NCBI GenBank assembly: GCA_963844965.1
Contig: CAWJQC010000007.1
Span: 32,001 to 96,000 of the forward strand
DNA: 64,000 bases
DNA from: an uncultured bacterium
GTDB taxonomy: Bacteria > Patescibacteriota > Minisyncoccia > UBA6257 > 2-01-FULL-56-20
Reading direction: 5' to 3'
Shown here: positions 265 through 55,741 of the stretch, piece by piece
How the letters are laid out: each line of letters begins with the position of its first letter
Position numbering within the stretch: position 1 is the stretch's first letter
Notes under the pieces: model-generated
What the model was told of the DNA's origin: nothing
What the model saw: the letters and a program-made list of their open reading frames with translations, nothing else
Database searches by the model: none
Position numbers and translations under genes: made by a program

Positions 265-1137
265 CTATTCACGAGAGAAAACAACCTGAGGGCGGAACCC
301 CAAGTCGTCGTCCCGTGCGGCAGGGCCATCCCAGTACACGTCGGAGAGGCCACCGTAGCCTGAGCTGCCGCCATCGAGGCGCCTCGCGCCCTTCTGGTAA
401 GAATCTTCAAACCATTCCCAGGTATTGGTATCGCCCCACTCGGGGTGATAGGCGTTGCCGATGAAGTTCCATTCAATGGCTCGCGGCAGGCGGAGACACT
501 CTTCGGGCACGTCCATTGCCTCCGCTATGGCTTTTTTCACTTCCGGCTTGTTCAGCTCGTCCCAGGAGATGTTGAAGCGGGAGCCTTTCGTCTCAAAGTC
601 CGTAATAATCTTCTTTTTCCTCAAGTCCTCCAAGACGGGTCTGAGAACGTCGTCCTTATATATTTGCTTGCCGCTCTCGTACTTCGGCTTCCCGCGGGTG
701 TCGACGAGAATCCAGGAGGCGGGGAGCTTCAGGGCGTCCTTCGGCAAATCGTCCTTTTTAACATCGGCATAAAATTCAATTCCCCAACCATCGGCATATT
801 TTTTGCCCGGCTTCTTTTTCCAACCAGGCAAATCGCGCTCTTCTGTTAGTTCTTCATCGGGCAAGTAATGGAGCTCGAAGCCCATTTCCTTCCACTTCTC
901 GTATCGTTCGGGTGTGATTTCTTCCGGCAGCGGTGGAACCTCAACGTCGTAGCCGAAGAATTCCCTGAGTTTCTCGGTTTCCTGTTCCATTAGTTCCCTG
1001 AACTCTGCCGAGGATTCGGGCGCTTTCCTTTTCTCCTTCTCCGCCTCGCCCAATGCTTTTTCCACCTTCTTCTGGACGGTGGTTTTGTACTGGTCGGGGT
1101 TATACTCTTCGTAGATTTTGTAACCGGGGAAGGGCAT
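265..1137 (-). CDS. DGR target protein, paralog 1 (C-terminal FGE-sulfatase/C-type-lectin-fold domain carrying the variable region)
   Basis: 290 aa. C-terminus ..CLRLPRAIEWNFIGNAYHPEWGDTNTWEWFEDSY..RRLDGG..LGFRPQVV matches the RLPxEAEWE / GNxWEW / RGG / LGFR motifs of the FGE/SUMF1 fold used by DGR targets. The last ~35 codons are VR1. The N-terminal 2/3 is shared with paralogs 2 and 3. Confidence 0.7.
   Translation of the reverse strand: MPFPGYKIYEEYNPDQYKTTVQKKVEKALGEAEKEKRKAPESSAEFRELMEQETEKLREFFGYDVEVPPLPEEITPERYEKWKEMGFELHYLPDEELTEERDLPGWKKKPGKKYADGWGIEFYADVKKDDLPKDALKLPASWILVDTRGKPKYESGKQIYKDDVLRPVLEDLRKKKIITDFETKGSRFNISWDELNKPEVKKAIAEAMDVPEECLRLPRAIEWNFIGNAYHPEWGDTNTWEWFEDSYQKGARRLDGGSSGYGGLSDVYWDGPAARDDDLGFRPQVVFSRE
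286..391 (-). repeat. DGR variable region VR1
   Basis: 106 bp matching the template repeat at 4576-4681 except at positions that are A in the template sense strand (T on the printed strand); ends with the GC-rich ctgagggcggaaccccaag 3' element. Confidence 0.75.
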
Positions 1138-1142
1138 GGGGG

Positions 1143-3164
1143 TTATAAGTCTTTAGTATATTGAAGAATAACTTTTTGAACGGCCCGCGGCAATTTATTG
1201 ATGTCTTCAATGACTTCCGCGTCGGGCTTGTAGGTTTCTTTCACAGCGGCCCCAGATTCCGTCATCCCGAGTCCCAAAACAATCACTCCTTTCTCGCGAA
1301 GGGCTTTGAGATTTTTTTGAACAAGCTCCGCGTTTTCGCTTTCGCCGTCCGAGAGCACCACGATTACCTTGCGCCTTATCTTTTCTCGAATCTGTCGCTC
1401 GTCTTCTGGCGTCAACGATTTCAATACCTCATCAAGCGATAGATAATCCGGCGTTCCGCCGCCCGCGTTGTGCATTTTCTTCCAAATTGCGATGCGGTCT
1501 TTTTCCGATAGGTCTGGCGAGAGTTTTTTGAGTTCAGCGTCCCCGAAGTCGCCGAACGCTCTCGTTTCGGTTCTCACGCCCAAGCCAACCGGCGTACCGC
1601 TTTCGTACTCGGCCTCCTCAATTTCTTTTTGGAAATCCGCAAGCGATTCCAAGAAGAGAAGCTTGCTCTTCCGGTCCATTTCCAATTTTGATCCCTCGTT
1701 CATGGAACCGGACAGGTCGTTGATCAGGGTCATGTCAAGCGCACCGTATCCTTCCTCCTCCCGTTCTTTGCGCTCGACTTCTCGGAATGCCCTCGGCTCG
1801 CCGCCGCTTTTTGATTCAATGTACGCTTCCGCGATCGCGCCACCTTCTATTTCCTCTCCTTCCCTCTGAAGTTGTGGCCGCACTTTCCAGCGCCGCCGCA
1901 ATCTCCTTGTCACCACTTGTTTGAACACTTCTCGGAGTTCGGCGATGAGCGGTGCGATTTCTTTATATTCATTCCGATAGCCAATTATGTCCTCAGGGCT
2001 TACATTATGCTCTTTGGCCCACTGTTCAAGGATGCTTTGATCAAGCGACGGCATTCCGCCCCGTTCTTTCACGATCGTCTCCATTGTTTTCATGATTTTC
2101 TCCTCGTCTTTCGCGGATAACGGCTCGGGGTGCACATCTTCGTAAGTTTTATATTGCTTCTTGAAATTTTTTTCCGCTTCTTTTCGCGCCGCGCTCTCGC
2201 TCCCCTTATCTTTTTTCTTGTCTTTCTCTTTCCCGCCCTCTTCCTCTTTGCCCTTGCCGGCCTCGGCTTCTTTTTTCTTTTTGAATTTGTCCCACCATTT
2301 TTTATCCTGCTTTTGCTCGCCTTGTCCCCCCTGCCCTTCTTGAGGTTGGCCTTCTCCGGCCTCTTCCTGCCCCTTCCCTTTTTTACCCTTACCTTTCTGC
2401 GTTTCTTTCTCCAGGTCCTTGCGATAGAGCTCCATATAAACCGGCTCGACAACCTGGCGCATAAGCCTGAAGCGATCGCGCGGCTCTATCGTAGGAGTGG
2501 TTACGAGATCCAAAATATCCGTCTTGTCGCCGCCGAAGCTTCTGAGCTTATCGAGCGCTTCTTGGGCTTCGGGACCCACCATAACCTTTTCATCGGGGAC
2601 CATCATCTGACGTATAAAGCCGTAGACGAACTGGACGTGGGCCGCCAGTTCTTGTTCTTGCCCGGTCTTCGGGTCTTCCAGGCGTCGGTAGTCCGTCGCC
2701 GGAAACATTTTCTCTTTATATAAAGTTCGGCGCGTCTCCTCCAAAAATGGTAGTTCGGCGACGATACGCCGATTACCAAGCACATCTTCAAAAATATTAT
2801 GAAGGATGTGGAGCTGCGGTTTTTGCTGGCTGTATCGCTTCGCTTCTTTGAGTATGAACTCGGGGTCTCTCAAGAGCTCGCCGTAATGAGCCATAAGTTC
2901 GTGGGTTGTCGCAAAAAGGGTTTCTTTGAGATTGTAGCCGCGCTCGATAAAAAAGTTAGGATCGTAAATTAGCCGACGGTTTTCAAAATCGAACGCCCAG
3001 CCGTTATTGCCCCTATCAAGCGTGATATCGCCGCGCATGCCGTACGCGCCGAGAATCTCGCCCTCTCTATCGAAAAACGCTTCAATTTCGGATGGCGGCG
3101 CCTCCTTTTTCTCAGCGAGGACGGTATTCTCCTCTGGCGGTTTTTCTGGCGAGAATTTAGTCAC
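1143..3164 (-). CDS. vWA-domain protein with N-terminal HExxH metallopeptidase-like motif and K/E/G-rich linker
   Basis: 673 aa. ATTHELMAH (HExxH) near the N-terminus. C-terminal DMTLINDLSGSM (MIDAS DxSGS) and VVLSDGES, typical of von Willebrand A domains. Long low-complexity KEG linker. Confidence 0.65.
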   Translation of the reverse strand: MTKFSPEKPPEENTVLAEKKEAPPSEIEAFFDREGEILGAYGMRGDITLDRGNNGWAFDFENRRLIYDPNFFIERGYNLKETLFATTHELMAHYGELLRDPEFILKEAKRYSQQKPQLHILHNIFEDVLGNRRIVAELPFLEETRRTLYKEKMFPATDYRRLEDPKTGQEQELAAHVQFVYGFIRQMMVPDEKVMVGPEAQEALDKLRSFGGDKTDILDLVTTPTIEPRDRFRLMRQVVEPVYMELYRKDLEKETQKGKGKKGKGQEEAGEGQPQEGQGGQGEQKQDKKWWDKFKKKKEAEAGKGKEEEGGKEKDKKKDKGSESAARKEAEKNFKKQYKTYEDVHPEPLSAKDEEKIMKTMETIVKERGGMPSLDQSILEQWAKEHNVSPEDIIGYRNEYKEIAPLIAELREVFKQVVTRRLRRRWKVRPQLQREGEEIEGGAIAEAYIESKSGGEPRAFREVERKEREEEGYGALDMTLINDLSGSMNEGSKLEMDRKSKLLFLESLADFQKEIEEAEYESGTPVGLGVRTETRAFGDFGDAELKKLSPDLSEKDRIAIWKKMHNAGGGTPDYLSLDEVLKSLTPEDERQIREKIRRKVIVVLSDGESENAELVQKNLKALREKGVIVLGLGMTESGAAVKETYKPDAEVIEDINKLPRAVQKVILQYTKDL

Positions 3165-3201
3165 GTTGTTTTGTTTATTATACCGCTTATACGCAAAAAA
3201 A

Positions 3202-4221
3202 TCAAATGATTTTCTTTATCATTTCCAGCCGCACCCCGCGAGACCGAGAATGCTTCACGAGCCCCAAATACGAGATGAAAGAATCTTTATTGAAACCGTT
3301 ATCCAATTTTTGGAGCATTCTCCGTTTTGTTTTTGTGCGCAAAATGCGGTGATGCGGAAAACAAACAAATCCGAGAAAATCTACGCCCTGATGATATTTT
3401 CTTATGGAAACTTTTTTGGGGTGCAGCTCGAGTTTGAGGTTTGCGTTAAGAAAATCGCTGATTTTTTCGATGTAGCTCGACAGAAGTTCCTTGTCCCTGT
3501 CCAAAATCACGAAATCATCGCAATAGCGCATATAATATTTTGCCCGCAAGATCGTTTTTACGAATTGATCGAGCTCATTCATGTAGATATTCGCGAAGAG
3601 TTGGCTCGTAAGGTTGCCGAGCGGCAACCCCTTGCCAGCTTCTTTGCTGAAACTGTCGATAATTATTTGGAAAAGGCTGAGGGCGCGCGGATCTTGTATT
3701 CGCCGCGCAAGAAGATTCTTCAATATCCCGTGGTCAATGGAGTTGAAAAAACTTTTGATGTCGCACTTCAGGGCCCAAACTGTTTTCGTGTTGTTTTTGG
3801 ATAATTTCCAGCCAAATTTGTGCAAGCGCTCGAGCGCGGCGTGAGCCCCCTTCTCGTCCCGGCAAGCGTAAGAATCAAAAATGAAGCGCAGATCGAATAT
3901 CGGCTCGATCACCCTGACGATCGCGTGATGTAAAACCCGGTCGCGAACCGGTGCTTTGTGGATGTGTCTTTTCTTCGGATCGAACACAAAAAACGATTTA
4001 TACGCGCCATGTTGATATTTTCCGTCCTTTAGCGTATAATGCAGGCAGAAAAGGTTATCTTCAAGATTGCGGGAAAATTCCATCACTTCCAGCTTCCGCG
4101 ATTTACCTCGTAAAAACTCATACCATGCAAACAACAAATTATTAGATGAAATAATGTTTTCATACACAACATGACTATCCAAACCGTCCCCGATAGAATG
4201 TTGGACCTCCCTATTTTCCAT
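3202..4221 (-). CDS. Diversity-generating retroelement reverse transcriptase
   Basis: RT motifs: ENIISSNNLLFAWYEFLRGKSRK (motif 0/1), KKRHIHKAPVRDRVLHHAIVRVIEPIF (motif 2), KSFFNSIDH (motif A), LPLGNLTSQLFANIYMNELD (motif B with the DGR-specific GxxxSQ instead of SP), YCDDFVI (YxDD). The ORF track starts at alt-start 4278; the ATG at 4221 fits DGR RT N-termini better. Confidence 0.8.
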   Translation of the reverse strand: MENREVQHSIGDGLDSHVVYENIISSNNLLFAWYEFLRGKSRKLEVMEFSRNLEDNLFCLHYTLKDGKYQHGAYKSFFVFDPKKRHIHKAPVRDRVLHHAIVRVIEPIFDLRFIFDSYACRDEKGAHAALERLHKFGWKLSKNNTKTVWALKCDIKSFFNSIDHGILKNLLARRIQDPRALSLFQIIIDSFSKEAGKGLPLGNLTSQLFANIYMNELDQFVKTILRAKYYMRYCDDFVILDRDKELLSSYIEKISDFLNANLKLELHPKKVSIRKYHQGVDFLGFVCFPHHRILRTKTKRRMLQKLDNGFNKDSFISYLGLVKHSRSRGVRLEMIKKII

Positions 4222-4551
4222 AAAACATACGATTTTATTATTGTATTTTCCAATTACGTCGTTAAGTTTCCCAAACACGATCGCTTCACTCTCGGCGCGA
4301 GGATAGAAAACACCGCCGTCGAACTCTTAATGCTTATCATGCGGGCGAATTACGGGCAAGCCGTAGCGCGCGTCGGTTTTTTAAACGAAGGAAGTATCCT
4401 GCTCGATATGCTCAAGGTATTCGTGCGGCTCGCGAAGGATAAGAAAGCTATACACCCGAATCAGTATTTAATGCTCGAGGAACGGTTGCAGGAAATAGGC
4501 CGCATGCTCGGCGGTTGGATAAAGTCCTCAAGTGCAAAAAGACCCGTGTGA
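4198..4551 (+). CDS. avd: Avd-like accessory variability determinant (four-helix-bundle protein)
   Basis: ~118 aa. ..FPKHDRFTLGARIENTAVELL..FLNEGSILLDMLKVFVRLAKD..LQEIGRMLGGWIKS closely resembles Bordetella bAvd (..GRILGSWIA..) and the TIGR02436 four-helix-bundle family. Opposite strand to the RT, 5' ends overlapping by ~24 nt. Confidence 0.6.
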   Translation: MLDLPIFHKTYDFIIVFSNYVVKFPKHDRFTLGARIENTAVELLMLIMRANYGQAVARVGFLNEGSILLDMLKVFVRLAKDKKAIHPNQYLMLEERLQEIGRMLGGWIKSSSAKRPV

Positions 4552-4563
4552 GCGGGTCTTTTT
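4536..4563. terminator. Bidirectional hairpin terminator between avd and TR
   Basis: aaaaagacccg-tgtgag-cgggtcttttt perfect palindrome with A/T runs on both sides. Confidence 0.5.
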
Positions 4564-4575
4564 GTGAGATACGAT

Positions 4576-4681
4576 CTGAGGGCGGAACCCCAAGTTGTCG
4601 TTCCGTTCGGCAGGGTCATCCCAGTTCACGTTGGAGAGGCCACCGTTGTCTGAGTTGCCGCCATCGAGGCGCCTCGTGCCC
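4576..4681 (-). repeat. DGR template repeat (TR)
   Basis: Not in a full-length gene. In the sense (minus) orientation it encodes GTRRLDGGNSDNGGLSNVNWDDPAERNDNLGFRPQ, with AAC/GAC codons exactly where the three VRs differ. Every VR/TR mismatch I can see is at a TR adenine. Confidence 0.8.
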
Positions 4682-4920
4682 GGTCCCAAGCCCATCTGTG
4701 TCCCAAACCATCCAAGGCAGCGGCAATTCGCAGAAAGCGTCTTGCCTGTATAAATATGGAGCGGTATTCCTTTGTTTAAAGGAAATCCGCATAAGTTTGG
4801 AGCACGTCGTTTCTCTCGTTTGTTGGGCGAACCGACGATCCGTAGATCCGGCTACATTAGCCCGCATAAAAAATTTACACCGAAATGCCCAAAGGAGCAA
4901 CAGCCCAATCCCCAAAGTTC

Positions 4921-5799
4921 CTACTCACGAGAGAAAACAACCTGAGGGCGGAACCCCAAGTCGTCGTTCCGTCCGGCAGGGCCATCCCAGTCCACGTGGG
5001 AGAGGCCACCGCGGCCTGAGTGGCCGCCATCGAGGCGCCTCGCGCCCTTTTGGTAAGAGTCCTCGAACCATTCCCAGGTATTCGTCTCACCCCACTTGGG
5101 ATAATAAAGATTTCCCATATAGTTCCATTCAATAGCTCTTGGAAGTCTCAGGGATTCGGGCGGAACGTCGAGTGCCTCCGCGATGGCTTTTTTCACTTCC
5201 GGCTTGTTCAGCTCGTCCCAGGAGATATTATAGCGAGAGTTCTTGACTTTGAAATCCGTGATTATCTTTTTCTTTCTCAAATCCTCAAGTGTCTCTGCCA
5301 GTATGTCTTCGGCATATTTTTGTTTGCCGTCTTGATAGTTGGGCTTTTCGCGGCTGTCCACGAGAATCCACGAGGCAGGTAGTTTGAGGGTGTCTTTCGG
5401 AAGATTGCCGTTCTTTACCTCGTCAAAAAACTCGATACCCCAACTCTTATCCGGAGTGTATCGCGTGCCCGGCTTCTTTTTCCAACCAGGCAAATCGCGC
5501 TCTTCTGTTAGCTCTTCATCGGGCAAGTAATGAAGTTCAAGCCCCATTTCTTTCCACTTTTCGTATCGTTCTGGTGTGATTTCTTCCGGCAGCAGTGGAA
5601 CCTCAACGTCGTAGCCGAAGAATTCCCTGAGTTTCTCGGTTTCCTGCTCCATTAGTTCCCTGAACTCTGCCGAGGATTCGGGTGCTTTCCTTTTCTCCTT
5701 CTCCGCCTCGCCCAATGCTTTTTCCACCTTCTTTTGAACGGTGGTTTTGTACTGGTCGGGGTTATACTCTTCGTAGATTTTGTAACCGGGGAAGGGCAT
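4921..5799 (-). CDS. DGR target protein, paralog 2
   Basis: 292 aa; same architecture as 265..1137; C-terminal VR2. Confidence 0.7.
   Translation of the reverse strand: MPFPGYKIYEEYNPDQYKTTVQKKVEKALGEAEKEKRKAPESSAEFRELMEQETEKLREFFGYDVEVPLLPEEITPERYEKWKEMGLELHYLPDEELTEERDLPGWKKKPGTRYTPDKSWGIEFFDEVKNGNLPKDTLKLPASWILVDSREKPNYQDGKQKYAEDILAETLEDLRKKKIITDFKVKNSRYNISWDELNKPEVKKAIAEALDVPPESLRLPRAIEWNYMGNLYYPKWGETNTWEWFEDSYQKGARRLDGGHSGRGGLSHVDWDGPAGRNDDLGFRPQVVFSRE
4942..5047 (-). repeat. DGR variable region VR2
   Basis: Aligned to TR; substitutions only at TR adenines. Confidence 0.75.
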
Positions 5800-5888
5800 G
5801 GTGTCAAATGAATGGTCTTATTTGTTTATTGTTATAAAATTTTTTTTGAAAGCCTACCAAAGAAACAAGAGAACAATTGTCAAAGTTC

Positions 5889-6737
5889 CTACTCACGAGA
5901 GAAAACAACCTGAGGGCGGAACCCCAAGCTGCCGAGCCGCTCGGCAGGGTCATCCCAGTCCACGTGGGAGAGGCCACCGAGGCCTGAGCCGCCGCCATCG
6001 AGGCGCCTCGCGCCCTTTTGGTAAGAATCTTCAAACCATTCCCAGGTATTGGTATCGCCCCACTCGGGGTGATAGGCGTTGCCGATAACGTTCCATTCAA
6101 TCGCTCGCGGCAGGCGGAGACACTCTTCGGGCACGTCCATTGCCTCCGCTATGGCCTTTTTGACTTCGGGCTTATTCAGTTCGTCCCAGGAGATGTTGAA
6201 GCGGGAGCCTTTCGTCTCAAAGTCCGTAATAATCTTCTTTTTCCTCAAGTCCTCTAAGACGGGTCTGAGGACGTCGTCCTTATATATTTGCTTGCCGCTC
6301 TCGTACTTCGGCTTCCCGCGGGTGTCGACGAGAATCCAGGCGTCGGGGAGCTTAGCAGCATCGGCAGGGATTTCGTTCGCCTCTAAGCGGCCATAAAACC
6401 AATCTCCAGGTTTCTTTTTCCACCCCGGGAAAGCGGCATCCTTCCTCATCTCTTCCGGGGGAAGGTAGTGCAATTCAAAACCCATCTCTTTCCATTTTTC
6501 ATAACGCTCGGGGGTAACTTCATCGGGTAAGGGCGGGACTTCAACCTCATGACCGAAGAAAGTGCTGAGAGATTCTGTCTCGCGATCTACCAGTTCCCGG
6601 AATTCCGCTGATTCCGGCGTCATTCTCCCTTTCTCCTTCTCCGCCTCGCCCAGTGCTTTTTCCACCTTCTTCTGGACGGTGGTTTTGTACTGGTCGGGGT
6701 TGTACTCTTCATAGATTTTGTAGCCGGGGAAGGGCAT
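5889..6737 (-). CDS. DGR target protein, paralog 3
   Basis: 282 aa; same N-terminal and C-terminal architecture; middle segment divergent; C-terminal VR3. Confidence 0.7.
   Translation of the reverse strand: MPFPGYKIYEEYNPDQYKTTVQKKVEKALGEAEKEKGRMTPESAEFRELVDRETESLSTFFGHEVEVPPLPDEVTPERYEKWKEMGFELHYLPPEEMRKDAAFPGWKKKPGDWFYGRLEANEIPADAAKLPDAWILVDTRGKPKYESGKQIYKDDVLRPVLEDLRKKKIITDFETKGSRFNISWDELNKPEVKKAIAEAMDVPEECLRLPRAIEWNVIGNAYHPEWGDTNTWEWFEDSYQKGARRLDGGGSGLGGLSHVDWDDPAERLGSLGFRPQVVFSRE
5910..6015 (-). repeat. DGR variable region VR3
   Basis: Aligned to TR; substitutions only at TR adenines. Confidence 0.75.
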
Positions 6738-6742
6738 CGGAA

Positions 6743-8419
6743 TTATTCTTTACCTTGCCACGCACGTAGGGTCTTCGCCGCGAGTCCAGGCACCTTGAAA
6801 TCTTCCGGCTTGGTGTCTTTGAAGAATTTATTCGCCATAAAGACGCGGATCATGTTTTCCCTGTCTTTGCTCGCGCGTCCGCTGATTTCCGCCTTATGGA
6901 AGAACTCGCGGAGAACCACGTTTCCGAGCGGATCTTTGAAGCCGCCGGCCTTCCACGCCTTCATAATTTCAATCTGGTCCTTCAAGGTGATGACGAGTTC
7001 TCGAAACGCAAGGCGGTCGCTCTTTGACAAGCTTTCTTCCGCGCCCTCCCGCACCGAGAGCGTGAAATCTTCCTGAATTTTGCGGCAGGCGGCGGCAAAG
7101 CGCTTCAGCTCATCAACTTTTTGCCCTGCTTCCGCTTCGCTCCATTGAATGTTGCCGTGGCGGTCGGCGAGAACGGCGGTCAAAATCTGCAACGTTTCCG
7201 GAGCGATATACTGCCCTTCTTTATTTTTCTTGCCGAGGTCCAAGTAATGTATTTCCCGCGCCCCTGCGCCTCCGATGAAGCGGCGAAGGGTCGCGACGTC
7301 CAGCTCATAGCGCTGCTTATATCGTTCTGATTTCAAGTTTGCCGTTGCCATAATCGGCGCGCGGATCGGAATTTCTTCCCCGGTCACCGGATGCTTCCAT
7401 GCGTCGCCGACGCGTTTCTGAAGAAGATCGTGCAAGATCCCCGCGAATTCGTGGGGCATAAGGTTGACTTCGTCCAAGATCACCGGGCGTCCTTCTTTTT
7501 GCGCCTTTACGAATTCGGAATAGTCAAAAACCGTCTCGCCCCCTTTGAGCCCTCGGCTCCCTATGATTTGTGATTCTTTGATTTGTTCTTGAATGGGGAT
7601 TAGGGCTGGGTCTCTCCTTAAGTATCTTTCGGAAATATATTTTGCAAGCTGCGACTTTCCGGAACCGGTTTCGCCCTGGAAAAGAACCGGCGCACCCTGC
7701 ATCAAATCCGGAAGTATGGCTCGGATCAATTCCGTACGCGATTCCGTTTCGGCGAAGCTGTAACGTTCGAGGTCGCGCTGCATGCGTCTGATTCCTCGCC
7801 GCTCCAACATATCAATCGTTTCGGGGTCCAATTCAAACTTCTGTAATCTTTCTTGAAGCTCAATCTTCCGAGCCGCCATGTTCGCCAATTTCTTGCGTTC
7901 AATCGGACCGGGCGCTCGCCCCACTTTCTCGAAAAGCATCTGGAGCTTTTCTTCGGCAGAAGTTATTGCGCCAAGTTCTTTCTCCGCATGTTCGTATTCT
8001 AACGCTTTTGCGAGCGTCTGTTTTTGTCTTTCAAATTTTTCTTTGTAAGCACGCAGCACTTCTGGATTGCTTGCTAATTCTTTTATACGAGCGTCGTATT
8101 CGTGAAGCGTGGTTTCCTGAAATTCCGCTAATTCTGGATCGAGCGAAAGAGCCTCAAGATGTGCGGCCATTTCTTTTTCGCCTTTGGCTTTGAGATCGGC
8201 GAGTTCCGTTTTGCTTTTCACGCCCCAGGCCTCATTCACATGTTTTGCGACCTCCGCGCGAGAAGCCGAAAACTCGGCGAGTTCGCTGACTCGCGATTCT
8301 AATTCTTCAGGCGACAGGGTTTTTTCTTTTTTCCCGGATTTTTGCGCGCCCTCCTTCTCAAGAACGATTTCGGGGGTAGTTTTTACCTCGGGAACATGTG
8401 GTATTTTTTCTGGGGACAT
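6743..8419 (-). CDS. AAA+ ATPase (AAA_5/MoxR-like) with N-terminal coiled-coil region
   Basis: 558 aa. Walker A GETGSGKS, Walker B VILDEVNL, ATANL sensor-like segment, arginine finger region RRF. Confidence 0.7.
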   Translation of the reverse strand: MSPEKIPHVPEVKTTPEIVLEKEGAQKSGKKEKTLSPEELESRVSELAEFSASRAEVAKHVNEAWGVKSKTELADLKAKGEKEMAAHLEALSLDPELAEFQETTLHEYDARIKELASNPEVLRAYKEKFERQKQTLAKALEYEHAEKELGAITSAEEKLQMLFEKVGRAPGPIERKKLANMAARKIELQERLQKFELDPETIDMLERRGIRRMQRDLERYSFAETESRTELIRAILPDLMQGAPVLFQGETGSGKSQLAKYISERYLRRDPALIPIQEQIKESQIIGSRGLKGGETVFDYSEFVKAQKEGRPVILDEVNLMPHEFAGILHDLLQKRVGDAWKHPVTGEEIPIRAPIMATANLKSERYKQRYELDVATLRRFIGGAGAREIHYLDLGKKNKEGQYIAPETLQILTAVLADRHGNIQWSEAEAGQKVDELKRFAAACRKIQEDFTLSVREGAEESLSKSDRLAFRELVITLKDQIEIMKAWKAGGFKDPLGNVVLREFFHKAEISGRASKDRENMIRVFMANKFFKDTKPEDFKVPGLAAKTLRAWQGKE

Positions 8420-8860
8420 ATTATTGCAATTATAGTAGCAAGGCCTTTATTTCTCAAGACTTTCGATTGTTTCCATGATACCATAATAATATAACTGCGT
8501 CAAGTCGCGCGTTTTCGTTCCCGAACGACCCCTGCTCTATCCTCAAAAACCTTGTCAGGGTCTAACTACGAAGGCCCCTTCGCAAGTCCTCTGATCTAAG
8601 TTAGGGTGGATGCAAAGGTCGAAAAATCGTATAATCTCATTAACAACTGAATAACCTCAAAGGCAGAGCCGTAACCCTCGCGAAAAATCGTGCGGCATGG
8701 CTCGAAATCCGTCCTCGGTAGAAAGCTCCTAGTCAGAGCACCGGGGACGGTCATATCTCGAAAGGGGTGTGGGTCCCGCAAGGGATCGCTGGCTGGGAGC
8801 TTTTTATTTCGGTCGATCTCTCGCTGGCACATTAGTAAATAATTAACAAAAAATAAAAAT

Positions 8861-9421
8861 ATGGAAGAGCAAACAAAGAAATGCAGGGAGTGCAAGTCGG
8901 ACATTCCGGCTGGCGCCAAGCGATGTCCCAGCTGCCGAGCGGATCAAAGGAACTGGTTGATGCGCCATAAAGCCTTAACTGTCGTGGTGATATTTATAGC
9001 GCTCATTATCATAGCCATGGTTGCTGGTAGTAATAGCAATAACCCTAAACAGGTCGGCAATAACAGCCAGCCAGTCCCATCATCCCAAGAGCAGACGTTC
9101 AAGGTCGGCGATCACGTCCAGATGGGAAGCGATATCATAACGGTGAACAGCGCGGAGTTTTCGAGCGGTACAGAATTCGCAAAGCCAGCCGCTGGGAACA
9201 CCTGGTTAGACGTCAATCTGACGATACAAAACACGGACAACGCCCAGCAGTATATAACGACCATGGGACAGATGTTTGTTAAGGATTCCGACGGCAACAG
9301 TTACAACGTTTCGCCCACGGACAAAGAATTACAAAATCCATCGCTTGGCATGGACGGCCCGATTCTTGCCAACAGCAAAAAGACCGCTTGGGTAGGGTTT
9401 GTAAAGGATAGGTTTCTTTAG
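8861..9421 (+). CDS. Zinc-ribbon / single-TM / DUF4352-like extracellular domain protein, 3' end running into the IS3 terminus
   Basis: N-terminal CxxC..CxxC, TM helix, then a beta-rich domain. The last codons (..VKDRFL*) are encoded by the IS terminal repeat, so the native C-terminus is probably lost. Confidence 0.55.
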   Translation: MEEQTKKCRECKSDIPAGAKRCPSCRADQRNWLMRHKALTVVVIFIALIIIAMVAGSNSNNPKQVGNNSQPVPSSQEQTFKVGDHVQMGSDIITVNSAEFSSGTEFAKPAAGNTWLDVNLTIQNTDNAQQYITTMGQMFVKDSDGNSYNVSPTDKELQNPSLGMDGPILANSKKTAWVGFVKDRFL

Positions 9422-9456
9422 ACAGTGATTCGACGGCTTTTTGCCGTTTTTTTTCG

Positions 9457-10239
9457 TTAAGCCGCAATCTTCTCGGCAAACACGGACGGCGGCATCTTGA
9501 GGGCGGAGTGGATCCGCGTGTGGTTGTACTGCCACAAGGTGCTGTAGATCTCCGCCACGAGCTCGCCGAAGGTCCCGAACCGGTTGGGATCACCGAGGTC
9601 AATCTTGAACTTGTCATAGAACGATTCCTGGTAGCCGTTTTCCCATGGGGCACCGGGCCGCGACCGCGAGATCGTGATGCCACAGTCCCCCAGTGTATCG
9701 GTGAACGCTCGTGCCTTGTACTCGCTGCCGTTGTCCGAATGGAAGATGACCGGATGCGGATGGTGGAAAAGCGCGTTGGCCAGGGTCTGTATCGTGAGGG
9801 GCGATCCTTTCCGCAACGCCACATGGACGCCCATCAATCGTCTCGTGAAAAGATCGAGTATCGTGGACACGTACACTTTCTTGCCGCGATACAGGAACTC
9901 CGTGAAATCGGTTGCCCAGACGTGGTTCGCGTACGAGGGCATGATGGCAAGTAAGAGGTTCGGAAAGGCCCGCGATGCCTTTGATTTCCGGTATTTCCTG
10001 CCTCGCCTCCGGTACGGCCTTATGCCGAAGATTCGCATGACGCGCTGCGCTCGCGGACGGCTCACGCCCAGAGCTTGTCCCAAGCGCCGGGAACCGTATG
10101 CCGGATGGCGCTGCAATTCTTCTTCCATGCGGATCTTGAGCGCCCAATCTTTCTTGTCCTGCCGTGATACGTAGTAGAGCGATGCCCGCGAGACGCCCAT
10201 GGCCCGCGCCATGGCGGACTTGTTCCGCTTTTCCGTCAA
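9457..10239 (-). CDS. IS3-family transposase OrfB (DDE integrase core)
   Basis: 260 aa; ..WATDFTEF..HSDNGSEY..YNHTRIHSAL.. rve-type DDE motifs. Confidence 0.85.
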   Translation of the reverse strand: MTEKRNKSAMARAMGVSRASLYYVSRQDKKDWALKIRMEEELQRHPAYGSRRLGQALGVSRPRAQRVMRIFGIRPYRRRGRKYRKSKASRAFPNLLLAIMPSYANHVWATDFTEFLYRGKKVYVSTILDLFTRRLMGVHVALRKGSPLTIQTLANALFHHPHPVIFHSDNGSEYKARAFTDTLGDCGITISRSRPGAPWENGYQESFYDKFKIDLGDPNRFGTFGELVAEIYSTLWQYNHTRIHSALKMPPSVFAEKIAA

Positions 10240-10499
10240 TTCTTTTTTTGGGCCTGGGAGAGCTTCACGGTGAGCTCGCCCACCACTTCAAACAGCTCCC
10301 TGTTCTGCTTCTGGAGACGGCTGAACTCGCCCCAGGAAGGGACGCCCGATGCTCCTGCGCCTAGCCAATTGTAGATGGTGGACTCGTGCAAACCGTGGTC
10401 CTTCGCAGCCTGCGCTACGGGGACTCCTTCTTCCTTCACCCGGCGGAGGATGTCCGCCTTCACTTCCTTCGCAATCCGATGCCCTTTTTTGTTGCTCAT
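10236..10499 (-). CDS. IS3-family transposase OrfA (HTH)
   Basis: 87 aa; helix-turn-helix; ends QAQKKN* at the frameshift heptamer. Confidence 0.85.
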   Translation of the reverse strand: MSNKKGHRIAKEVKADILRRVKEEGVPVAQAAKDHGLHESTIYNWLGAGASGVPSWGEFSRLQKQNRELFEVVGELTVKLSQAQKKN

Positions 10500-10531
10500 G
10501 ACACAATGGTAGTTTGTTTCGACCTTTGTGT

Positions 10532-11794
10532 CTAAATTATCCTATCCGGGTCAATGGTTAAGTCGCAGAATGCCGGTTCCAATTCGACCGTATAGACCCG
10601 GCGCTTAAGTTGTTCACCTGCAATCAGCGTGCTGCCGCTGCCGCAAAAGCTGTCCAAGATAATGTCTCCCGGACGGCTGCACCTGCGGATCGCTTTTTCA
10701 TGGAGCGCTGGCGGCTTGGACGTAGCGTGCTGATATTCGTTGCCCGCGAGTCGCTTCACGAGCCAGATGTCAAGCAAATCCAGGATGTCGTCAATGAGCC
10801 TGTTGCCCGTGGAGAGTTCCTTGTTCTGGATCTCGTTGAGCGACTGGAGGCCCTTCGCGAGATACGGCTTGCCGCGGACGCCGTAGACGGCGGGTTCATA
10901 GCACTTCGAGAAAGCGACCTCGGGAGTGGGGTTCTGGCCGTTTTTAATCCAGAGGCAGACGCGCTTGTTTTCAAGGCCGAGTTCCGCGTAGAGTGTCTGC
11001 AGGAGCCAGATATAACGCTGGTCGCACCAATAAAAGACATGCATATCGTCTTTCGCGACGGCGAGGGCGTTTACGAGGCTCTTCCGGAGAAACTCTTTGT
11101 ACTCGTCGTCAGTCCGCGTGTCGTTGACGCTACCGCCGTAGTTGGCATGTCCGCCGACGCCCTTCGCATAATCCACGCCGCCCTTCAGGTTATAGACCGG
11201 ATCGGAATAAATGACGGATGCCTTCTCGCCGCCAAAAAGCTTTTTGAGGACGGCGGGGTCTGTTGAATCGCCGCAAGCTAATTTATGAGGGCCTAGCGAG
11301 AATATGTCGCCGAGCTTTGTTTTCGGTTTTTTGATCTTGGCGAGCTCGCGTTCGACATTGAACTCATCGTCCTGAACTTCCGCGATGTCGTCCCAGAGGT
11401 GCGACAGCTCTTCGTCTTTAAATCCGATTTCAAGCAATAGCTCGGTGTCGAAGGTGCGTAATAGCTCGTATGACCAGTCTCCGCGCACGGCATTTGAGGT
11501 GAGCAAGTATTGCTCAAACTCGTGTTTCGTCAATTTCCGGTTCGGCACGCGCACTTCTATTTCTTCGCTCCCTCGGCCAAGGAGCTGAAGGGCCTTCAAC
11601 CTTTGATGACCAGCTATGATCGTGCCGTCCGTGTCGATCGCGGGAAGTTCTACGACGTTGAATTTCGTCAGGCTCTTCTTAAGGGCCTCGAGCTGAGCCT
11701 CGCCGATGGTGCGGGGATTTTTGGAAAACGGGACGAGTGAGTTAATCGCTCTCTTCTCCGTGTGCCAGATTAGCGATATGTGTTTTCTAGCCAT
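10532..11794 (-). CDS. ParB-like nuclease domain fused to an N6-adenine/N4-cytosine DNA methyltransferase (beta-class, PF01555-like)
   Basis: 420 aa. N-terminal ParB/Srx-like region (..IIAGHQRLKA..). MTase motif IV variant SDPVYN. C-terminal motif I ILDSFCGSGSTLIAGEQLKRRVYTVELEP. The last 8 codons are encoded by the IS IRL. Confidence 0.7.
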   Translation of the reverse strand: MARKHISLIWHTEKRAINSLVPFSKNPRTIGEAQLEALKKSLTKFNVVELPAIDTDGTIIAGHQRLKALQLLGRGSEEIEVRVPNRKLTKHEFEQYLLTSNAVRGDWSYELLRTFDTELLLEIGFKDEELSHLWDDIAEVQDDEFNVERELAKIKKPKTKLGDIFSLGPHKLACGDSTDPAVLKKLFGGEKASVIYSDPVYNLKGGVDYAKGVGGHANYGGSVNDTRTDDEYKEFLRKSLVNALAVAKDDMHVFYWCDQRYIWLLQTLYAELGLENKRVCLWIKNGQNPTPEVAFSKCYEPAVYGVRGKPYLAKGLQSLNEIQNKELSTGNRLIDDILDLLDIWLVKRLAGNEYQHATSKPPALHEKAIRRCSRPGDIILDSFCGSGSTLIAGEQLKRRVYTVELEPAFCDLTIDPDRII

Positions 11795-12054
11795 TGTTGA
11801 TAATTTTTAATTTGTTCGACGACATAACGACTGCATTCCCACCCGACCGATTTTTCCTCTGACCATTCACGAAGGGTTGACAACGTGACATCAGTCGAGA
11901 TCGCAAACGCTTTTATCTGCTCCGGCGTCGCGTCGCGTACGGCGGCCCGCCAGTGGATGAATGCCGAGCGTCGCGCCAGTTCGTCGTATTTTCCGCGCCG
12001 GATGACGATCGGTTCCCGTGCCGTCGGCACTTTTTCGGGGCTTAGATATTGCAT
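11770..12054 (-). CDS. Hypothetical protein
   Basis: 94 aa; co-oriented, between the 309-aa ORF and the ParB-MTase; no motif recognised. Confidence 0.4.
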   Translation of the reverse strand: MQYLSPEKVPTAREPIVIRRGKYDELARRSAFIHWRAAVRDATPEQIKAFAISTDVTLSTLREWSEEKSVGWECSRYVVEQIKNYQQWLENTYR

Positions 12055-12168
12055 ATAAATGTAAATTTATTTTTCGACTCTTTGCCTCATGAAAAATTTG
12101 AGGCATGACCGTTCGGTCATACCTCTATCGAAGCACAAGCTCCTGTGGATATTCGGGAAAAAAGTAGA

Positions 12169-13098
12169 CTACTCTTTCCCGAAGCGCTTATCCCTCAATT
12201 CCTGCAGCAACCGGGCCGCCTCGGCGATTCGCTTGCCATCAGGCTTCCCTTTGATAAGTTTTTGCTCTATGGCGGTCTTGGCGAGTTCGTCGAGGGTGGT
12301 GTGGTAATACGCGCCGCGCTCGTTATTCTCGGCGTGATCCCAATGGTCGCGGTCTCCCATGACCCACTGCTCAATGGTCAATTTGTTATCGATGTCTTTA
12401 ATGGGATTAAACTTAGCGAGGCGGCGCTTGCCCCAGTAGGTGAGATAGCGTTTAAGTTCCTCGAAGTCTTCGTCGGTAAGTTGAGCATATACGTTTACGG
12501 GCACATACCGCATATCTTTCGATCGCGCGCCCGGCGGCCATGCGCCACCCTGAAAACTGCTCATGGGGGCGTTAATACTCCCGTTCAAAATATATTGCTG
12601 AATAAACCAGCCGAAGTGTTCCGGCGCGTTGAATCGTGCCGCGATATAGCGTGGCATTTCATGGAGATAATAGCTTGGGTTTTTGAAGTTCAGCATCTTC
12701 CGGCGTAGTTTCGCAGCATCGAAATCTTTCTGCGCTTTTTCTCGGTCTTGTGCAGTGGCGTTTTTGTCTCGCGATAACTCATAACAGACCTTCCGGCACT
12801 TCTCGATTTCGGCGTTTGCGTCGCGCTCGCTTTTCTGGAATTCGAGGGAATCCAAGACTGCTTCGGAGCGTTCCAGAAGGCAGTCGCCCCATCCAACGTG
12901 TCGCTTGTCATTTTTATCAGTGGGGATATCGAGAAATTCCCGCGCTTCCGCGACGAACTCTTGGAACGGCTTGTGGGAAATGAGCAGCTTCATCATGTCG
13001 AGATTCTTCCTGTGGGATGGAAATTTGCCGTTCAGCCATCCCGTCGCCATTCTCTTGGCCGGAGACTTTTTCTTTGTTTTACGTTTCGCTTTGGGCAT
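12169..13098 (-). CDS. Hypothetical protein (basic N-terminus)
   Basis: 309 aa; MPKAKRKTKKKSPAKR.. N-terminus; no recognised domain. Confidence 0.5.
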   Translation of the reverse strand: MPKAKRKTKKKSPAKRMATGWLNGKFPSHRKNLDMMKLLISHKPFQEFVAEAREFLDIPTDKNDKRHVGWGDCLLERSEAVLDSLEFQKSERDANAEIEKCRKVCYELSRDKNATAQDREKAQKDFDAAKLRRKMLNFKNPSYYLHEMPRYIAARFNAPEHFGWFIQQYILNGSINAPMSSFQGGAWPPGARSKDMRYVPVNVYAQLTDEDFEELKRYLTYWGKRRLAKFNPIKDIDNKLTIEQWVMGDRDHWDHAENNERGAYYHTTLDELAKTAIEQKLIKGKPDGKRIAEAARLLQELRDKRFGKE

Positions 13099-13147
13099 TG
13101 TAAGCTAATGGTAATTCCCTAGTTTTGGAAAAGCAATTTACCTCATT

Positions 13148-13795
13148 ATGGATAAAGAAAAGCAAGAACAAGAAATTGAAGAGACTGCGTCGACAAATCA
13201 ATCCAAGAAGCCACGCAAATTAAAAGCGCGTTTACTGCGCCTTTATTACCTCGCCGTTTGGAACAGTACCCTCCGCAAAGATCGCTGCGTACAGTGGTTT
13301 CGGCGATATGCGCACGCCCTACGCGAAATTTTTATCTTAATAGTCACGATCGTTGCGGCTTGGTCTATCACGCAATTCATCGACATTTCTTCAATTTCGA
13401 CGAATAACTTGGCGAGTTGTTTTGTCGCGGTTGGTGCGATGATCGGTGGCGTCATAGCCATCGTGTTTTCGCTCTCGATTTTTGCCCAGCAAAGCAGCGC
13501 CGATCTTTATTCATCCCAGTATTTCGAGGTGTATGCCCACGATTGGAAAGAGAAGATGACGTATTCGTTAATTGTGCTCATAACGATTGCGTTCTTCGTC
13601 GGCGGAATCATTTTTTACGGCAACGCGAACTTGGCCACGGTCTATAAGTATGTCGGTGTGTATGCATCGCTGATCTTAATAGGAACCGTCTTCATTTTGG
13701 TCGATTGGCAGTACCGAAACGTAACGTCGAAGGCTAATCCCATTAAAGCGCTCAACTTTCTCGAAAGGCAATCTGACCCGGATAGGATAATTTAG
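13148..13795 (+). CDS. Membrane protein, C-terminus running into the IS terminus (probably truncated)
   Basis: 215 aa; several hydrophobic helices; the last codons ..DPDRII* are encoded by the IS IRL. Confidence 0.45.
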   Translation: MDKEKQEQEIEETASTNQSKKPRKLKARLLRLYYLAVWNSTLRKDRCVQWFRRYAHALREIFILIVTIVAAWSITQFIDISSISTNNLASCFVAVGAMIGGVIAIVFSLSIFAQQSSADLYSSQYFEVYAHDWKEKMTYSLIVLITIAFFVGGIIFYGNANLATVYKYVGVYASLILIGTVFILVDWQYRNVTSKANPIKALNFLERQSDPDRII

Positions 13796-13827
13796 ACACA
13801 AAGGTCGAAACAAACTACCATTGTGTC

Positions 13828-14091
13828 ATGAGCAACAAAAAAGGGCATCGGATTGCGAAGGAAGTGAAGGCGGACATCCTCCGCCGGGTGAAGGAAGAAG
13901 GAGTCCCCGTAGCGCAGGCTGCGAAGGACCACGGTTTGCACGAGTCCACCATCTACAATTGGCTAGGCGCAGGAGCATCGGGCGTCCCTTCCTGGGGCGA
14001 GTTCAGCCGTCTCCAGAAGCAGAACAGGGAGCTGTTTGAAGTGGTGGGCGAGCTCACCGTGAAGCTCTCCCAGGCCCAAAAAAAGAATTGA
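13828..14091 (+). CDS. IS3 transposase OrfA
   Basis: Identical to the other copies. Confidence 0.85.
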   Translation: MSNKKGHRIAKEVKADILRRVKEEGVPVAQAAKDHGLHESTIYNWLGAGASGVPSWGEFSRLQKQNRELFEVVGELTVKLSQAQKKN

Positions 14092-14870
14092 CGGAAAAGC
14101 GGAACAAGTCCGCCATGGCGCGGGCCATGGGCGTCTCGCGGGCATCGCTCTACTACGTATCACGGCAGGACAAGAAAGATTGGGCGCTCAAGATCCGCAT
14201 GGAAGAAGAATTGCAGCGCCATCCGGCATACGGTTCCCGGCGCTTGGGACAAGCTCTGGGCGTGAGCCGTCCGCGAGCGCAGCGCGTCATGCGAATCTTC
14301 GGCATAAGGCCGTACCGGAGGCGAGGCAGGAAATACCGGAAATCAAAGGCATCGCGGGCCTTTCCGAACCTCTTACTTGCCATCATGCCCTCGTACGCGA
14401 ACCACGTCTGGGCAACCGATTTCACGGAGTTCCTGTATCGCGGCAAGAAAGTGTACGTGTCCACGATACTCGATCTTTTCACGAGACGATTGATGGGCGT
14501 CCATGTGGCGTTGCGGAAAGGATCGCCCCTCACGATACAGACCCTGGCCAACGCGCTTTTCCACCATCCGCATCCGGTCATCTTCCATTCGGACAACGGC
14601 AGCGAGTACAAGGCACGAGCGTTCACCGATACACTGGGGGACTGTGGCATCACGATCTCGCGGTCGCGGCCCGGTGCCCCATGGGAAAACGGCTACCAGG
14701 AATCGTTCTATGACAAGTTCAAGATTGACCTCGGTGATCCCAACCGGTTCGGGACCTTCGGCGAGCTCGTGGCGGAGATCTACAGCACCTTGTGGCAGTA
14801 CAACCACACGCGGATCCACTCCGCCCTCAAGATGCCGCCGTCCGTGTTTGCCGAGAAGATTGCGGCTTAA
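14088..14870 (+). CDS. IS3 transposase OrfB
   Basis: Identical to the other copies; -1 frame relative to orfA. Confidence 0.85.
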   Translation: MTEKRNKSAMARAMGVSRASLYYVSRQDKKDWALKIRMEEELQRHPAYGSRRLGQALGVSRPRAQRVMRIFGIRPYRRRGRKYRKSKASRAFPNLLLAIMPSYANHVWATDFTEFLYRGKKVYVSTILDLFTRRLMGVHVALRKGSPLTIQTLANALFHHPHPVIFHSDNGSEYKARAFTDTLGDCGITISRSRPGAPWENGYQESFYDKFKIDLGDPNRFGTFGELVAEIYSTLWQYNHTRIHSALKMPPSVFAEKIAA

Positions 14871-14929
14871 CGAAAAAAAACGGCAAAAAGCCGTCGAATC
14901 ACTGTCTAAAGAAACCTATCCTTTACAGG

Positions 14930-15675
14930 GCACGGAATATGGCGAAGGCGGTCATCTTGTCATCCCGACGCTTTCATCGCGGCCGCACCATCATCCACGC
15001 GAACTCGACCGAGCGGTCATTGGCCGCATCCTTGCACTTCGCAGCGAACGGGACCAATGCGCGGAGATCGTCCATCACCGGCTAGAAGAGGAAAAGATTG
15101 CCGTTAGCCTTTCGTCCGTGAAGCGTACACTCAAACGCCACGGTATCACGCGATATTCAAAATGGAAGAAGTGGCACCAGTATCTTCCGCGTCCCATGCC
15201 CACAAAGCCAGGCATATTGGTTGAGATCGATTCAATGCAAGAAGGTATTGCCATGGACCACCTCCATGCGTACGCCTTGATCGACGTATGTTCCCGTTGG
15301 GCGTGGGCATGGCCAGCCGCCCAGGTCTCAAGCCGCTTAAGCGCACGGTTCGTCCAGCAAGCGCAAGCGGCAGCTCCGTTTCCTTTCGTCACAATCCAAT
15401 CCGACCGTGGCGGGGAGTTTTCAAAATGGTTTACCAAGGTCATCGAGCATCAGGGATTTTCACATCGCCACTCGCGCGTACGGACGCCAACAGATAACAG
15501 CCATGTGGAACGGTTCATCCAAACGCTTCAGCGGGACTGTTTACGACGTATCCCTAACACTCTTGCCGCGTGGCGCAAGGAGATTCCCGATTTTCTTCAC
15601 TACTACAATACCGAACGGCCGCACATGGGACTTGATATGAAAACGCCCGTCGAGTGGTTAGAAGCTATTGATTAG
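14930..15675 (+). pseudogene. IS481-like DDE transposase (integrase core), 5' end disrupted or ambiguous
   Basis: ..HTH-like RELDRAVIGRILALRSE.., then DSMQEG..DHLHAYALIDV.., QSDRGGEF.., HYYNTERPHMGLDMKTP. No in-frame ATG after the IS3 right end; the only ATG (14939) is in another frame that closes at 15085. Confidence 0.5.
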
Positions 15676-15691
15676 AAAGCATCACCGCGGG

Positions 15692-16129
15692 CTAAAGCCC
15701 GCGGCTTGTGTTCGGCTCCTGTTCCCACTGGTTTCTGATATATTCTCTCATCGCTTTTTCGTTTTGACGGCCAACGGTTTCGGCAAAGTAACCATCCTGC
15801 CACAAGCTGTCTCCCCAGAGGAATTCTTCCAGCTCGGGAAATTCTTTTCTGACAGCCCTGGACGTACCGCCTTTGAGATAAAACACCGCTTTGGCAACCG
15901 TCAGGGTAGCAGGAATTTGAAGCAATAGATGGACATGGTCGGGCATTATCTGCGCTTCATGGATGAACCATTTATTCATCTTGGCGGCTTGAAAGAACAA
16001 TGTCTTGAGTCGCCCGACCATGTCCCCTCGCAGTATCGAGCGGCGGTACTTTGGGCAGAAAACAACGTGGTACAAACATCGCGTATAGCTGTGGTTGCTT
16101 GGCCAGAATCCAGAGGGCATTATCTTCAT
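15692..16129 (-). CDS. tnpA: IS200/IS605-family Y1 transposase TnpA
   Basis: 145 aa; HVHLLL (HuH), Y..IRNQ; the palindrome ccgcgggctaaagcccgcgg overlaps the 3' end. Confidence 0.8.
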   Translation of the reverse strand: MKIMPSGFWPSNHSYTRCLYHVVFCPKYRRSILRGDMVGRLKTLFFQAAKMNKWFIHEAQIMPDHVHLLLQIPATLTVAKAVFYLKGGTSRAVRKEFPELEEFLWGDSLWQDGYFAETVGRQNEKAMREYIRNQWEQEPNTSRGL

Positions 16130-16581
16130 TATCGCACCGGCAGAAACCAGTGGGAACAGGCAAATAAGCCCTCCGCCCCTCGCTTCGCTCGGGGCTACGG
16201 GGTCGCCTTATCCTCGGCCTAAAGGCCGGGGCTTGCGGCGGAGCGGGTCAAATGAGAAACCTCCCACATGCCTCTTTTTTGCCCCAAATGCCCCAAATGA
16301 TCACCGACCGCGGTGCTTCAGGAGCTGGCAAAGCATCTCAAAATGCTTTATATTTCCGTCATAGCCCCGCGACCAGGGTGCTTCGGAAAGGAGTGGAAGG
16401 GTAATCATCAAAATCCCTCAATAACCTTGTGAAACCTCGCTAGGAATACACCCTTAAAAGTTCGACACCGCACGGGGGGCAGGCAGGCCTCCAAGGCGCA
16501 CACCATCGTGGCTCTTGCTTCTGGCTCTGCGGGGGTTTAAGCTATTCGTAGTCCTATTTTTATTTTTACACGGAGACATGA

Positions 16582-54539: not shown

Positions 54540-54644
54540 TCCAAGTTTTACATTTTGAGGGAGATGGAGCGGTTGGAAATATCTAAATGTAAAGGATAGG
54601 TTTCTTTAGACAGTGATTCGACGGCTTTTTGCCGTTTTTTTTCG

Positions 54645-55687: not shown

Positions 55688-55741
55688 GACACAATGGTAG
55701 TTTGTTTCGACCTTTGTGTCTAAATTATCCTATCCGGGTCA

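Follow-up and report, generated by a model that had tools for sequence, protein, structure and literature searches.

A ParB-Tls (ParB-terminase large subunit) locus of phages and prophages is credited, in PMC4738411 and PMC6536676, to Iyer, Zhang and Aravind. Its ParB-like protein is predicted to steer a modification apparatus onto phage DNA during packaging (PMC4738411), and in Paracoccus prophages 36 fusions of ParB to a methyltransferase (MTase) lie upstream of terminase genes and form the largest MTase group (PMC6536676). We analysed a 64,000-nucleotide stretch of DNA from an uncultured bacterium of the Patescibacteriota (contig CAWJQC010000007.1, positions 32,001 to 96,000; this whole stretch is called the window throughout), in which a gene for such a fusion lies between two copies of an insertion sequence (IS). 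The results make it likely that positions 10554-13773 represent the 5' front of a packaging cassette of phage origin, widespread in Patescibacteria chromosomes and reduced here to a remnant truncated by the IS. The locus resembles ParB-Tls in that a ParB-like domain is fused to a beta-class MTase and that homologous loci lie directly upstream of the terminase genes TerS and TerL, often with a second MTase between them. It differs in that the window itself carries neither TerS nor TerL, whereas most of its relatives do. A further difference is that TerL in the Patescibacteria relatives is followed by a superinfection-exclusion-like (Sie-like) gene led by a LOOT RNA and by a serine recombinase gene, and not by portal and capsid genes as in Streptococcus phage Javan630, where the ParB-MTase (named 'adenine-specific methyltransferase') is followed by TerL and then by the portal gene. 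The features of the window on which this comparison is built are the following.

10532-11794, minus strand: fusion of a ParB_N domain and a beta-class amino-methyltransferase, 420 aa (list of open reading frames, ORFs, and profile matches).
11357-11764, minus strand: ParB/Srx-type N-terminal domain of this protein, residues 11-146 (phrog_620, E 1.1e-22; Noc/ParB profile match).
10556-11215, minus strand: N6_N4_Mtase domain of this protein, residues 194-413 (PF01555, E 4.7e-26; CcrM structure 6pbd, E 1.1e-9).
9400-10553, minus strand: IS3-family element, left copy, 1154 nt, abutting the truncated MTase gene and the truncated DUF4352 gene.
13774-14927, plus strand: IS3-family element, right copy, identical to the left one (repeat comparison).
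13148-13795, plus strand: ORF of 215 aa for a membrane protein, lying divergently to the cassette; the right IS copy truncates its 3' end.
8861-9421, plus strand: gene for a zinc-ribbon/transmembrane/DUF4352 protein, convergent with the MTase gene, its 3' end cut by the left IS copy.
8667-8787, plus strand: LOOT RNA (RF03000), leader of the DUF4352 gene and, in related loci, a landmark for the far side of the cassette (Rfam, 83 bits).

Twenty-eight non-redundant related loci were annotated with hidden Markov models (HMMs) built for this analysis, and the identities of the genes were checked with PHROGs (TerS, phrog_4044; TerL, phrog_38 at E 1e-63 to 1e-75). Among the 27 loci with at least 2.5 kb of downstream sequence, TerS comes after the ParB-MTase in 25 and TerL is present in 19, and a second MTase of 255 aa is inserted in 11. 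A serine recombinase was found in 18, and LOOT in 17, of the 23 loci with at least 5 kb downstream; this large recombinase measures about 440 aa and its copies share about 60% identity with one another. The order of the full cassette is a variable first gene, a small helical protein, the ParB_N-MTase, an optional second MTase, TerS and TerL. A LOOT-led gene for a membrane protein of the Sie/DUF4352 type and the large serine recombinase gene usually lie near it. In three loci (L011, L014 and L017) TerS, of 142-206 aa, is directly followed by LOOT and the serine recombinase, and no TerL was detected by HMM.

Homologues of TerS, TerL and the recombinase were searched for across the 64 kb of the window, and none was found. 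Read on its minus strand, the window shows the genes for a 309-aa and a 94-aa protein, the ParB-MTase gene broken at its 3' end, the IS, the reversed and broken DUF4352 gene and the reversed LOOT. Locus L009 has the same arrangement: a LOOT-led DUF4352 homologue lies there between TerL and the recombinase, and the window has the IS in place of TerS-TerL. This correspondence is the main evidence for an insertion of the IS accompanied by an adjacent deletion. In L006, L007, L019, L021 and L023, LOOT is likewise carried by the opposite strand and lies between TerL and the recombinase; in L011, also on the opposite strand, it lies between TerS and the recombinase.

The junctions of the IS copies were then compared with the ends of the neighbouring genes. 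The last 22 nt of both the 420-aa ORF and the 215-aa ORF at 13148-13795 are IS sequence, and the two ORFs share the ending DPDRII followed by a stop codon. Since both run into IS ends, both genes are 3'-truncated. In the 420-aa ORF, codons 1-414 are native, and the last six codons and the stop (10532-10553) belong to the end of the IS. The C-terminus of the family reads FCDLxIxRYExLTxxK, with a tail past FCDL that is mostly 17-22 aa long and measures 10 aa in the closest relative, P0002. The protein of the window keeps two native residues past FCDL, which are followed by six IS-coded ones, and its native C-terminus is therefore not complete. What has gone from the 3' end of the gene is the last 8-20 codons or so, replaced by the IS, and everything downstream. 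When the window is aligned with L001 (84% protein identity), DNA homology ends 8 nt short of the IS edge. Together, the short native tail and the end of homology close to the IS edge show that the MTase gene was 3'-truncated by the IS. On the far side of the same IS copy, the DUF4352 gene retains profile positions 1-100 of the 122 in the Pfam model. Judging from its sequence, the MTase of the window has lost the C-terminal helix; most likely it is a remnant without activity.

The truncated MTase might instead still be active and be kept as an orphan chromosomal N6-adenine methylase, with an epigenetic or self-protective role and with the 94-aa and 309-aa proteins as its regulators, in other words be domesticated. 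We regard this as unlikely, while granting it some weight. The ORF is intact over its 414 native codons and includes every catalytic motif, with 84% identity to the intact P0002; the PF01555 match runs from position 3 to 219 of 221, and the upstream genes are intact as well. The IS copies are identical, which indicates a recent insertion and says little on long-term retention; a recent insertion fits equally well a gene that is just starting to decay. Moreover, it is the conserved tail (xRYExLT...) that has been swapped for the six IS-coded residues.

Gene content, domains and truncation points, as observed in the window, and synteny, as observed in its relatives, would be accounted for by a remnant in the following way. 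An intact cassette would methylate its own DNA: the ParB_N domain would load or target the MTase onto the DNA of the element near the packaging machinery, and packaged DNA would arrive in the next host already methylated and safe from restriction. In the genome of the window, an expanding IS3-family element would have entered the MTase gene within its final codons. Between this point and the 3' end of the DUF4352 gene, which is convergent, about 2-3 kb of DNA expected to hold the second MTase, TerS and TerL would have been lost, and a second IS copy would have cut the neighbouring membrane-protein gene. The leftover cassette would be unable to package; its MTase gene would be a pseudogene in decay or, at best, would still encode a residual orphan methylase that modifies the chromosome of its host.

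Several observations weigh against this account. Beyond LOOT, the window carries an AAA_5 gene and no serine recombinase gene, so that more than one rearrangement would be needed, unless this copy never had a recombinase. The content of the deletion was deduced from relatives at 54-84% identity. A role of ParB-MTases in packaging has been published as a prediction (PMC4738411) and is not an experimental result. The MTase ORF has no internal stops and, being 84% identical to an intact relative, may still encode an active enzyme. Finally, the sequence comes from a metagenome assembly, in which four identical repeats of 1.15 kb could have caused misjoins.

The last of these points leads to the proposal that the junctions are assembly artefacts, the contig having been mis-joined across identical 1154-nt IS repeats, and that the true downstream genes are merely separated from the MTase. 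The four identical copies in 64 kb, the lack of target-site duplications, the presence of a 32-nt solo IS end and the metagenomic origin of the 331,718-nt contig would all agree with such an error. However, the genes do run into IS ends, and the insertion at the 3' end of the MTase gene is real whatever lies beyond it. No homologue of TerS, TerL or the recombinase lies beside another IS copy in the window, and no continuation of the MTase or of the DUF4352 protein appears in the translated flanks of any IS end. The missing C-terminal ends of these two proteins were sought at every IS end in the window and were not found. We therefore consider a misassembly improbable and retain the explanation by IS insertion and deletion.

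The left and right IS copies are 100% identical, inverted, and separated by 3220 nt. Their TG...CA ends, together with an 87-aa HTH_Tnp_1 ORF (orfA) and a 260-aa rve ORF (orfB), place them in the IS3 family. Two more identical copies (54588-55741, minus strand, and 58634-59787, plus strand) form a second inverted pair 45 kb away. This pair, with a spacing of 2892 nt, encloses a 902-aa type III Res-like helicase gene (55942-58650), which likewise reads into an IS end and has no adjacent Mod gene; the 32-nt solo IS end lies beside one of its copies, at 55742-55773. Adjoining the right copy of the first pair, a graveyard of IS sequences was observed at 14928-16160. It holds a 5'-truncated ORF for a transposase with an rve domain, ending at 15675, which we read as IS481-like, and an IS200-type Y1 transposase gene (15692-16129, minus strand) within a 20-nt perfect inverted repeat (15718-15737 and 16141-16160).

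The sequence-only reading, a description of the locus drawn up from its letters by a model, had presented the MTase and its two upstream genes as IS-flanked cargo. Identical inverted copies do flank them; cargo is the part that does not hold, since the cut ORFs, the lack of target-site duplications and the absence of the downstream partners indicate a remnant that arose by IS insertion and deletion. If the IS pair and its interior were a functional composite transposon moving an orphan anti-restriction or epigenetic MTase module, then the bracketing of a few kilobases (3220 nt) by identical inverted copies would be explained, as in known composite transposons, and so would the recurrence of the pattern around the type III Res gene 45 kb away (2892 nt). 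Target-site duplications were sought at the four IS copies, taken singly, as composite units and under homologous or duplicative inversion, and none was found. The outer flanks of the unit formed by the MTase segment and its two IS copies read ...GGGTT and GGGCA..., with no duplication of 3-5 nt in any combination, direct or inversion-swapped. In contrast to composite transposons, both inner IS ends truncate genes, what they enclose is an incomplete cassette, and nothing points to joint movement, the 3.2-kb interior occurring only once in the window. A transposon of this kind has, in our view, little chance of being the right explanation. Read as a remnant, the locus documents how an expanding IS3-family element dismantles mobile and defence genes in a small genome.

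The absence of an adjacent cognate restriction gene had also been stated from the sequence, and this was confirmed: the neighbours of the MTase are the 94-aa and 309-aa genes, the IS and the membrane-protein ORF. The locus differs in this respect from a type II restriction-modification (R-M) system, and no nuclease adjoins the ParB-MTase in those relatives whose called genes were listed. The MTase could also be the modification half of an R-M system with a remote nuclease, for instance the Res-like gene at 55942-58650, a gene of the ResIII/REase_III type that has no Mod gene next to it in the window. Nevertheless, this gene is 45 kb distant, the ParB-MTase is syntenic with terminase genes and not with nucleases in 25 of the 27 loci, and the best PADLOC and NCBIfam matches of the MTase are type II or CcrM-like and not type III Mod. 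Such a pairing is extremely unlikely, and we rejected it on the grounds of distance and synteny.

The PF01555 match of the fusion protein scores 92.5 bits against a gathering cut-off of 26.7 and covers profile positions 3-219 of 221. Motif IV, DPVY (residues 198-201, positions 11192-11203), and motif I, FCGSGST (residues 383-389, positions 10628-10648), were located in the translation; motif IV stands ahead of motif I (FxGxG, binding S-adenosylmethionine), which is the beta-class order. These results bear out the beta-class amino-MTase with the motifs quoted in the sequence-only reading, as does the finding of the three minus-strand ORFs of 420, 94 and 309 aa where it had placed them. The outcome that this reading had named as its refutation, motifs I and IV left unconfirmed by a profile search, did not occur. 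Only in one respect does the description of motif IV need correction. The form SDPVYN had been called a variant, and DPVY does depart from the canonical (D/S)PP(Y/F). The departure is not peculiar to this gene: about 73 of the 120 closest homologues have DPVY, 28 have DPIY and eight have DPPY. As far as the alignment tells, DP(V/I)Y is a conserved trait of this MTase clade and no mark of decay, and the second proline of motif IV appears dispensable in the clade. The methylated base is probably N6-adenine, as the Asp in DPxY and the CcrM/RsrI-like catalytic domain suggest. CcrM and M.RsrI (PDB 6pbd and 1eg2) share the catalytic fold and the motif order, CcrM aligning with residues 189-410. Unlike CcrM, the protein of the window has an N-terminal ParB_N domain and lacks the C-terminal domain; its NCBIfam matches are CcrM-like and sub-threshold only, at 42 bits against an equivalog cut-off of 830.

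The N-terminal domain gave a more mixed picture. A search of the N-terminal 165 aa with the Pfam model ParB_N/ParBc (PF02195) returned no match even at E<=10. PF02195 matches are recorded for relatives of the protein, however, and a profile of the N-domain family compared with the PDB retrieved Noc/ParB structures at E 0.017. In this comparison AGHQR (residues 61-65, positions 11600-11614) is aligned with the GERRxRA box (GERRWRA in Noc), the GxxR box for nucleotide binding or catalysis in this domain, and AGHQR is kept in 114 of 120 homologues. The ParB/Srx assignment of the sequence-only reading is thus supported by the ParB-like family phrog_620, the relatives and the Noc/ParB profile, and fails on the PF02195 search of the protein itself. 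The ParB_N call is supported at the level of sequence by PHROGs, relatives and the PDB profile search, and 'nuclease' is an unproven label for this domain.

Across both domains, the protein matches phrog_498 (residues 11-414, E 4.8e-78) and the PADLOC type II MTase model PDLC03229 (residues 12-413, E 3.4e-51). The same architecture occurs in 376 records of catalogued phages, and 281 phage records cover at least 80% of the protein, in agreement with the earlier statement that such fusions are typical of phages. Proteins of phrog_498 and PDLC03229 from phages of Firmicutes and Actinobacteria match over the full length of the two domains. They differ from the protein of the window in sharing only about 31% identity with it, and the window clade has mostly DP(V/I)Y rather than DPPY. 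More than 3799 homologues were found, mostly in Patescibacteria; among the 120 best of them, the median length is 425 aa and identities run from 65 to 84%. Their contigs, of up to 888 kb, are named Patescibacteria, Parcubacteria, Paceibacterota, Saccharibacteria, Moraniibacteriota and similar. The ParB-MTase gene is among the best-conserved mobile genes across Patescibacteria. The MTase itself is of an already described kind, a new but damaged member of its family, and adds little alone, since a ParB-MTase next to a terminase is already known in phages and the one found here is a broken copy. More interest attaches to the parent capsid-less cassette and to its link with LOOT.

Capsid or portal genes were not detected within the 6-14 kb of fetched flanks of the cassettes examined, and in L019 and L023 host-type genes are found within about 6-8 kb on either side of the cassette. 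Defence genes were often observed in the flanks (SduA_C, MmeI-like, HEPN_AbiU2, DruA/NurA and R-M genes). With phage satellites and islands of the phage-inducible chromosomal island (PICI) type, the related loci, though not the window, have in common an integrase-type recombinase, repressor-like genes (HTH_3/M78, LexA-like), packaging genes, defence cargo and the lack of detectable capsid or portal genes over these 6-14 kb. They differ from PICI-like islands in having a large serine recombinase, not a tyrosine integrase, and in that most encode TerL in addition to TerS. It is possible, and we put it forward tentatively, that the parent cassette, far from being the end of a decayed prophage, is a previously undescribed, capsid-less and packaging-competent integrative element of Patescibacteria, satellite-like, with a functional LOOT tightly coupled to the recombinase; in that case, the window would contain a copy inactivated by the IS, and the 309-aa family would count as a specific, structurally novel accessory. 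Little is known of the mobile elements of this phylum, and a compact cassette that lacks visible capsid genes might be one way in which DNA is transferred there.

The position of LOOT was compared among the related loci. It was identified in 17 of them (L001, L003, L005-L014, L017, L019, L021, L023 and L025), in two main arrangements. In the first, LOOT is divergent from the serine recombinase gene and lies about 110-160 nt upstream of it (L006, L007, L011, L014, L017, L019, L021 and L023); in the second, it lies on the same strand, about 50 nt downstream of the recombinase gene (L003, L005, L012 and L013). LOOT is tied in its position to the large serine recombinase gene of the cassette. Where examined, the gene after LOOT encodes a DUF4352, zinc-ribbon or superinfection-exclusion-like protein, and the 217-aa LOOT-led protein of L019 matches the Sie-like phrog_8545 (E 2.6e-18). 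No function is stated for LOOT in its Rfam entry, which gives small RNA only, or in the main text of its source paper.

Upstream of the MTase gene, the remnant comprises four further features.

12169-13098, minus strand: first gene of the cassette, for a 309-aa protein whose family is uncharacterised (homologue search, AlphaFold2 model, synteny).
11770-12054, minus strand: 94-aa helical protein, its gene overlapping the MTase start by 25 nt (one homologue).
12100-12125, minus strand: terminator-like hairpin of 11 pairs with a T-rich tail, separating the 309-aa gene from the 94-aa gene (consensus match only).
13057-13125, minus strand: 5' leader and first 14 or so codons of the 309-aa gene (DNA match to L001).

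The two upstream genes had been suggested to belong to the same module as the MTase, which conserved synteny in the relatives corroborates. They had also been said to lack recognisable domains. Searches against Pfam, NCBIfam, PHROGs and PADLOC revealed none in either protein, in line with this statement; the 309-aa protein nevertheless has a family with at least 119 representatives. A word-index search had yielded a single relative of it (P0124, 73% identity), and an exhaustive HMMER search yielded these 119 cluster representatives, typically of 260-285 aa. Relative to the family, the protein of the window carries an insertion of about 21 residues in its helical hairpin. In all three members that were looked up (P0124, P0126 and P0128), the gene lies directly upstream of the ParB_N-MTase, TerS, TerL and serine recombinase genes. 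Structure prediction, one of the checks proposed with the sequence-only reading, gave a confident model for one of the two proteins. The AlphaFold2 model of the 309-aa protein (predicted local distance difference test, pLDDT, 91) combines a basic N-terminus with a long helical hairpin and an alpha/beta part at the C-terminus, and a fold search with it gave no structural match; the single-sequence model of the 94-aa protein is helical, with a pLDDT of 48, and is not reliable. The 309-aa protein thus defines a confidently folded family without a structural relative, specific to these cassettes.

In other loci, the same first slot is occupied by unrelated proteins of 247-270 aa with similarly basic N-termini. 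A stretch of about 70 nt that takes in the leader and the first 14 codons (start MPKxKRKT) is 83% identical at the DNA level between the window (13057-13125) and L001 (8757-8824), and the remainder of the 309-aa protein is unrelated to the 270-aa protein in the same slot of L001. This pattern in the sequences suggests that gene bodies have been exchanged behind a conserved start region. For the 94-aa protein, a word-index search found no relative; its only homologue, also after a jackhmmer search, is the 98-aa ORF that L001 has in the corresponding place (45% identity over 42 aa). The 94-aa gene probably forms an operon with the MTase gene, and its product is possibly a helix-turn-helix protein. 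Position and composition hint that the 309-aa and 94-aa proteins could be DNA-binding or regulatory accessories of the cassette.

Elsewhere in the window, a probable diversity-generating retroelement was observed at 265-8419. Its parts are a reverse transcriptase gene (3202-4278, minus strand; RVT_1), a bAvd accessory gene (4171-4551, plus strand) and three genes on the minus strand (265-1137, 4921-5799 and 5889-6737) for paralogous proteins of about 285 aa, whose differences are mostly found close to the C-terminus. An AAA_5 ATPase gene (6743-8419) and a gene for a VWA protein (1143-3164) lie alongside this putative retroelement.

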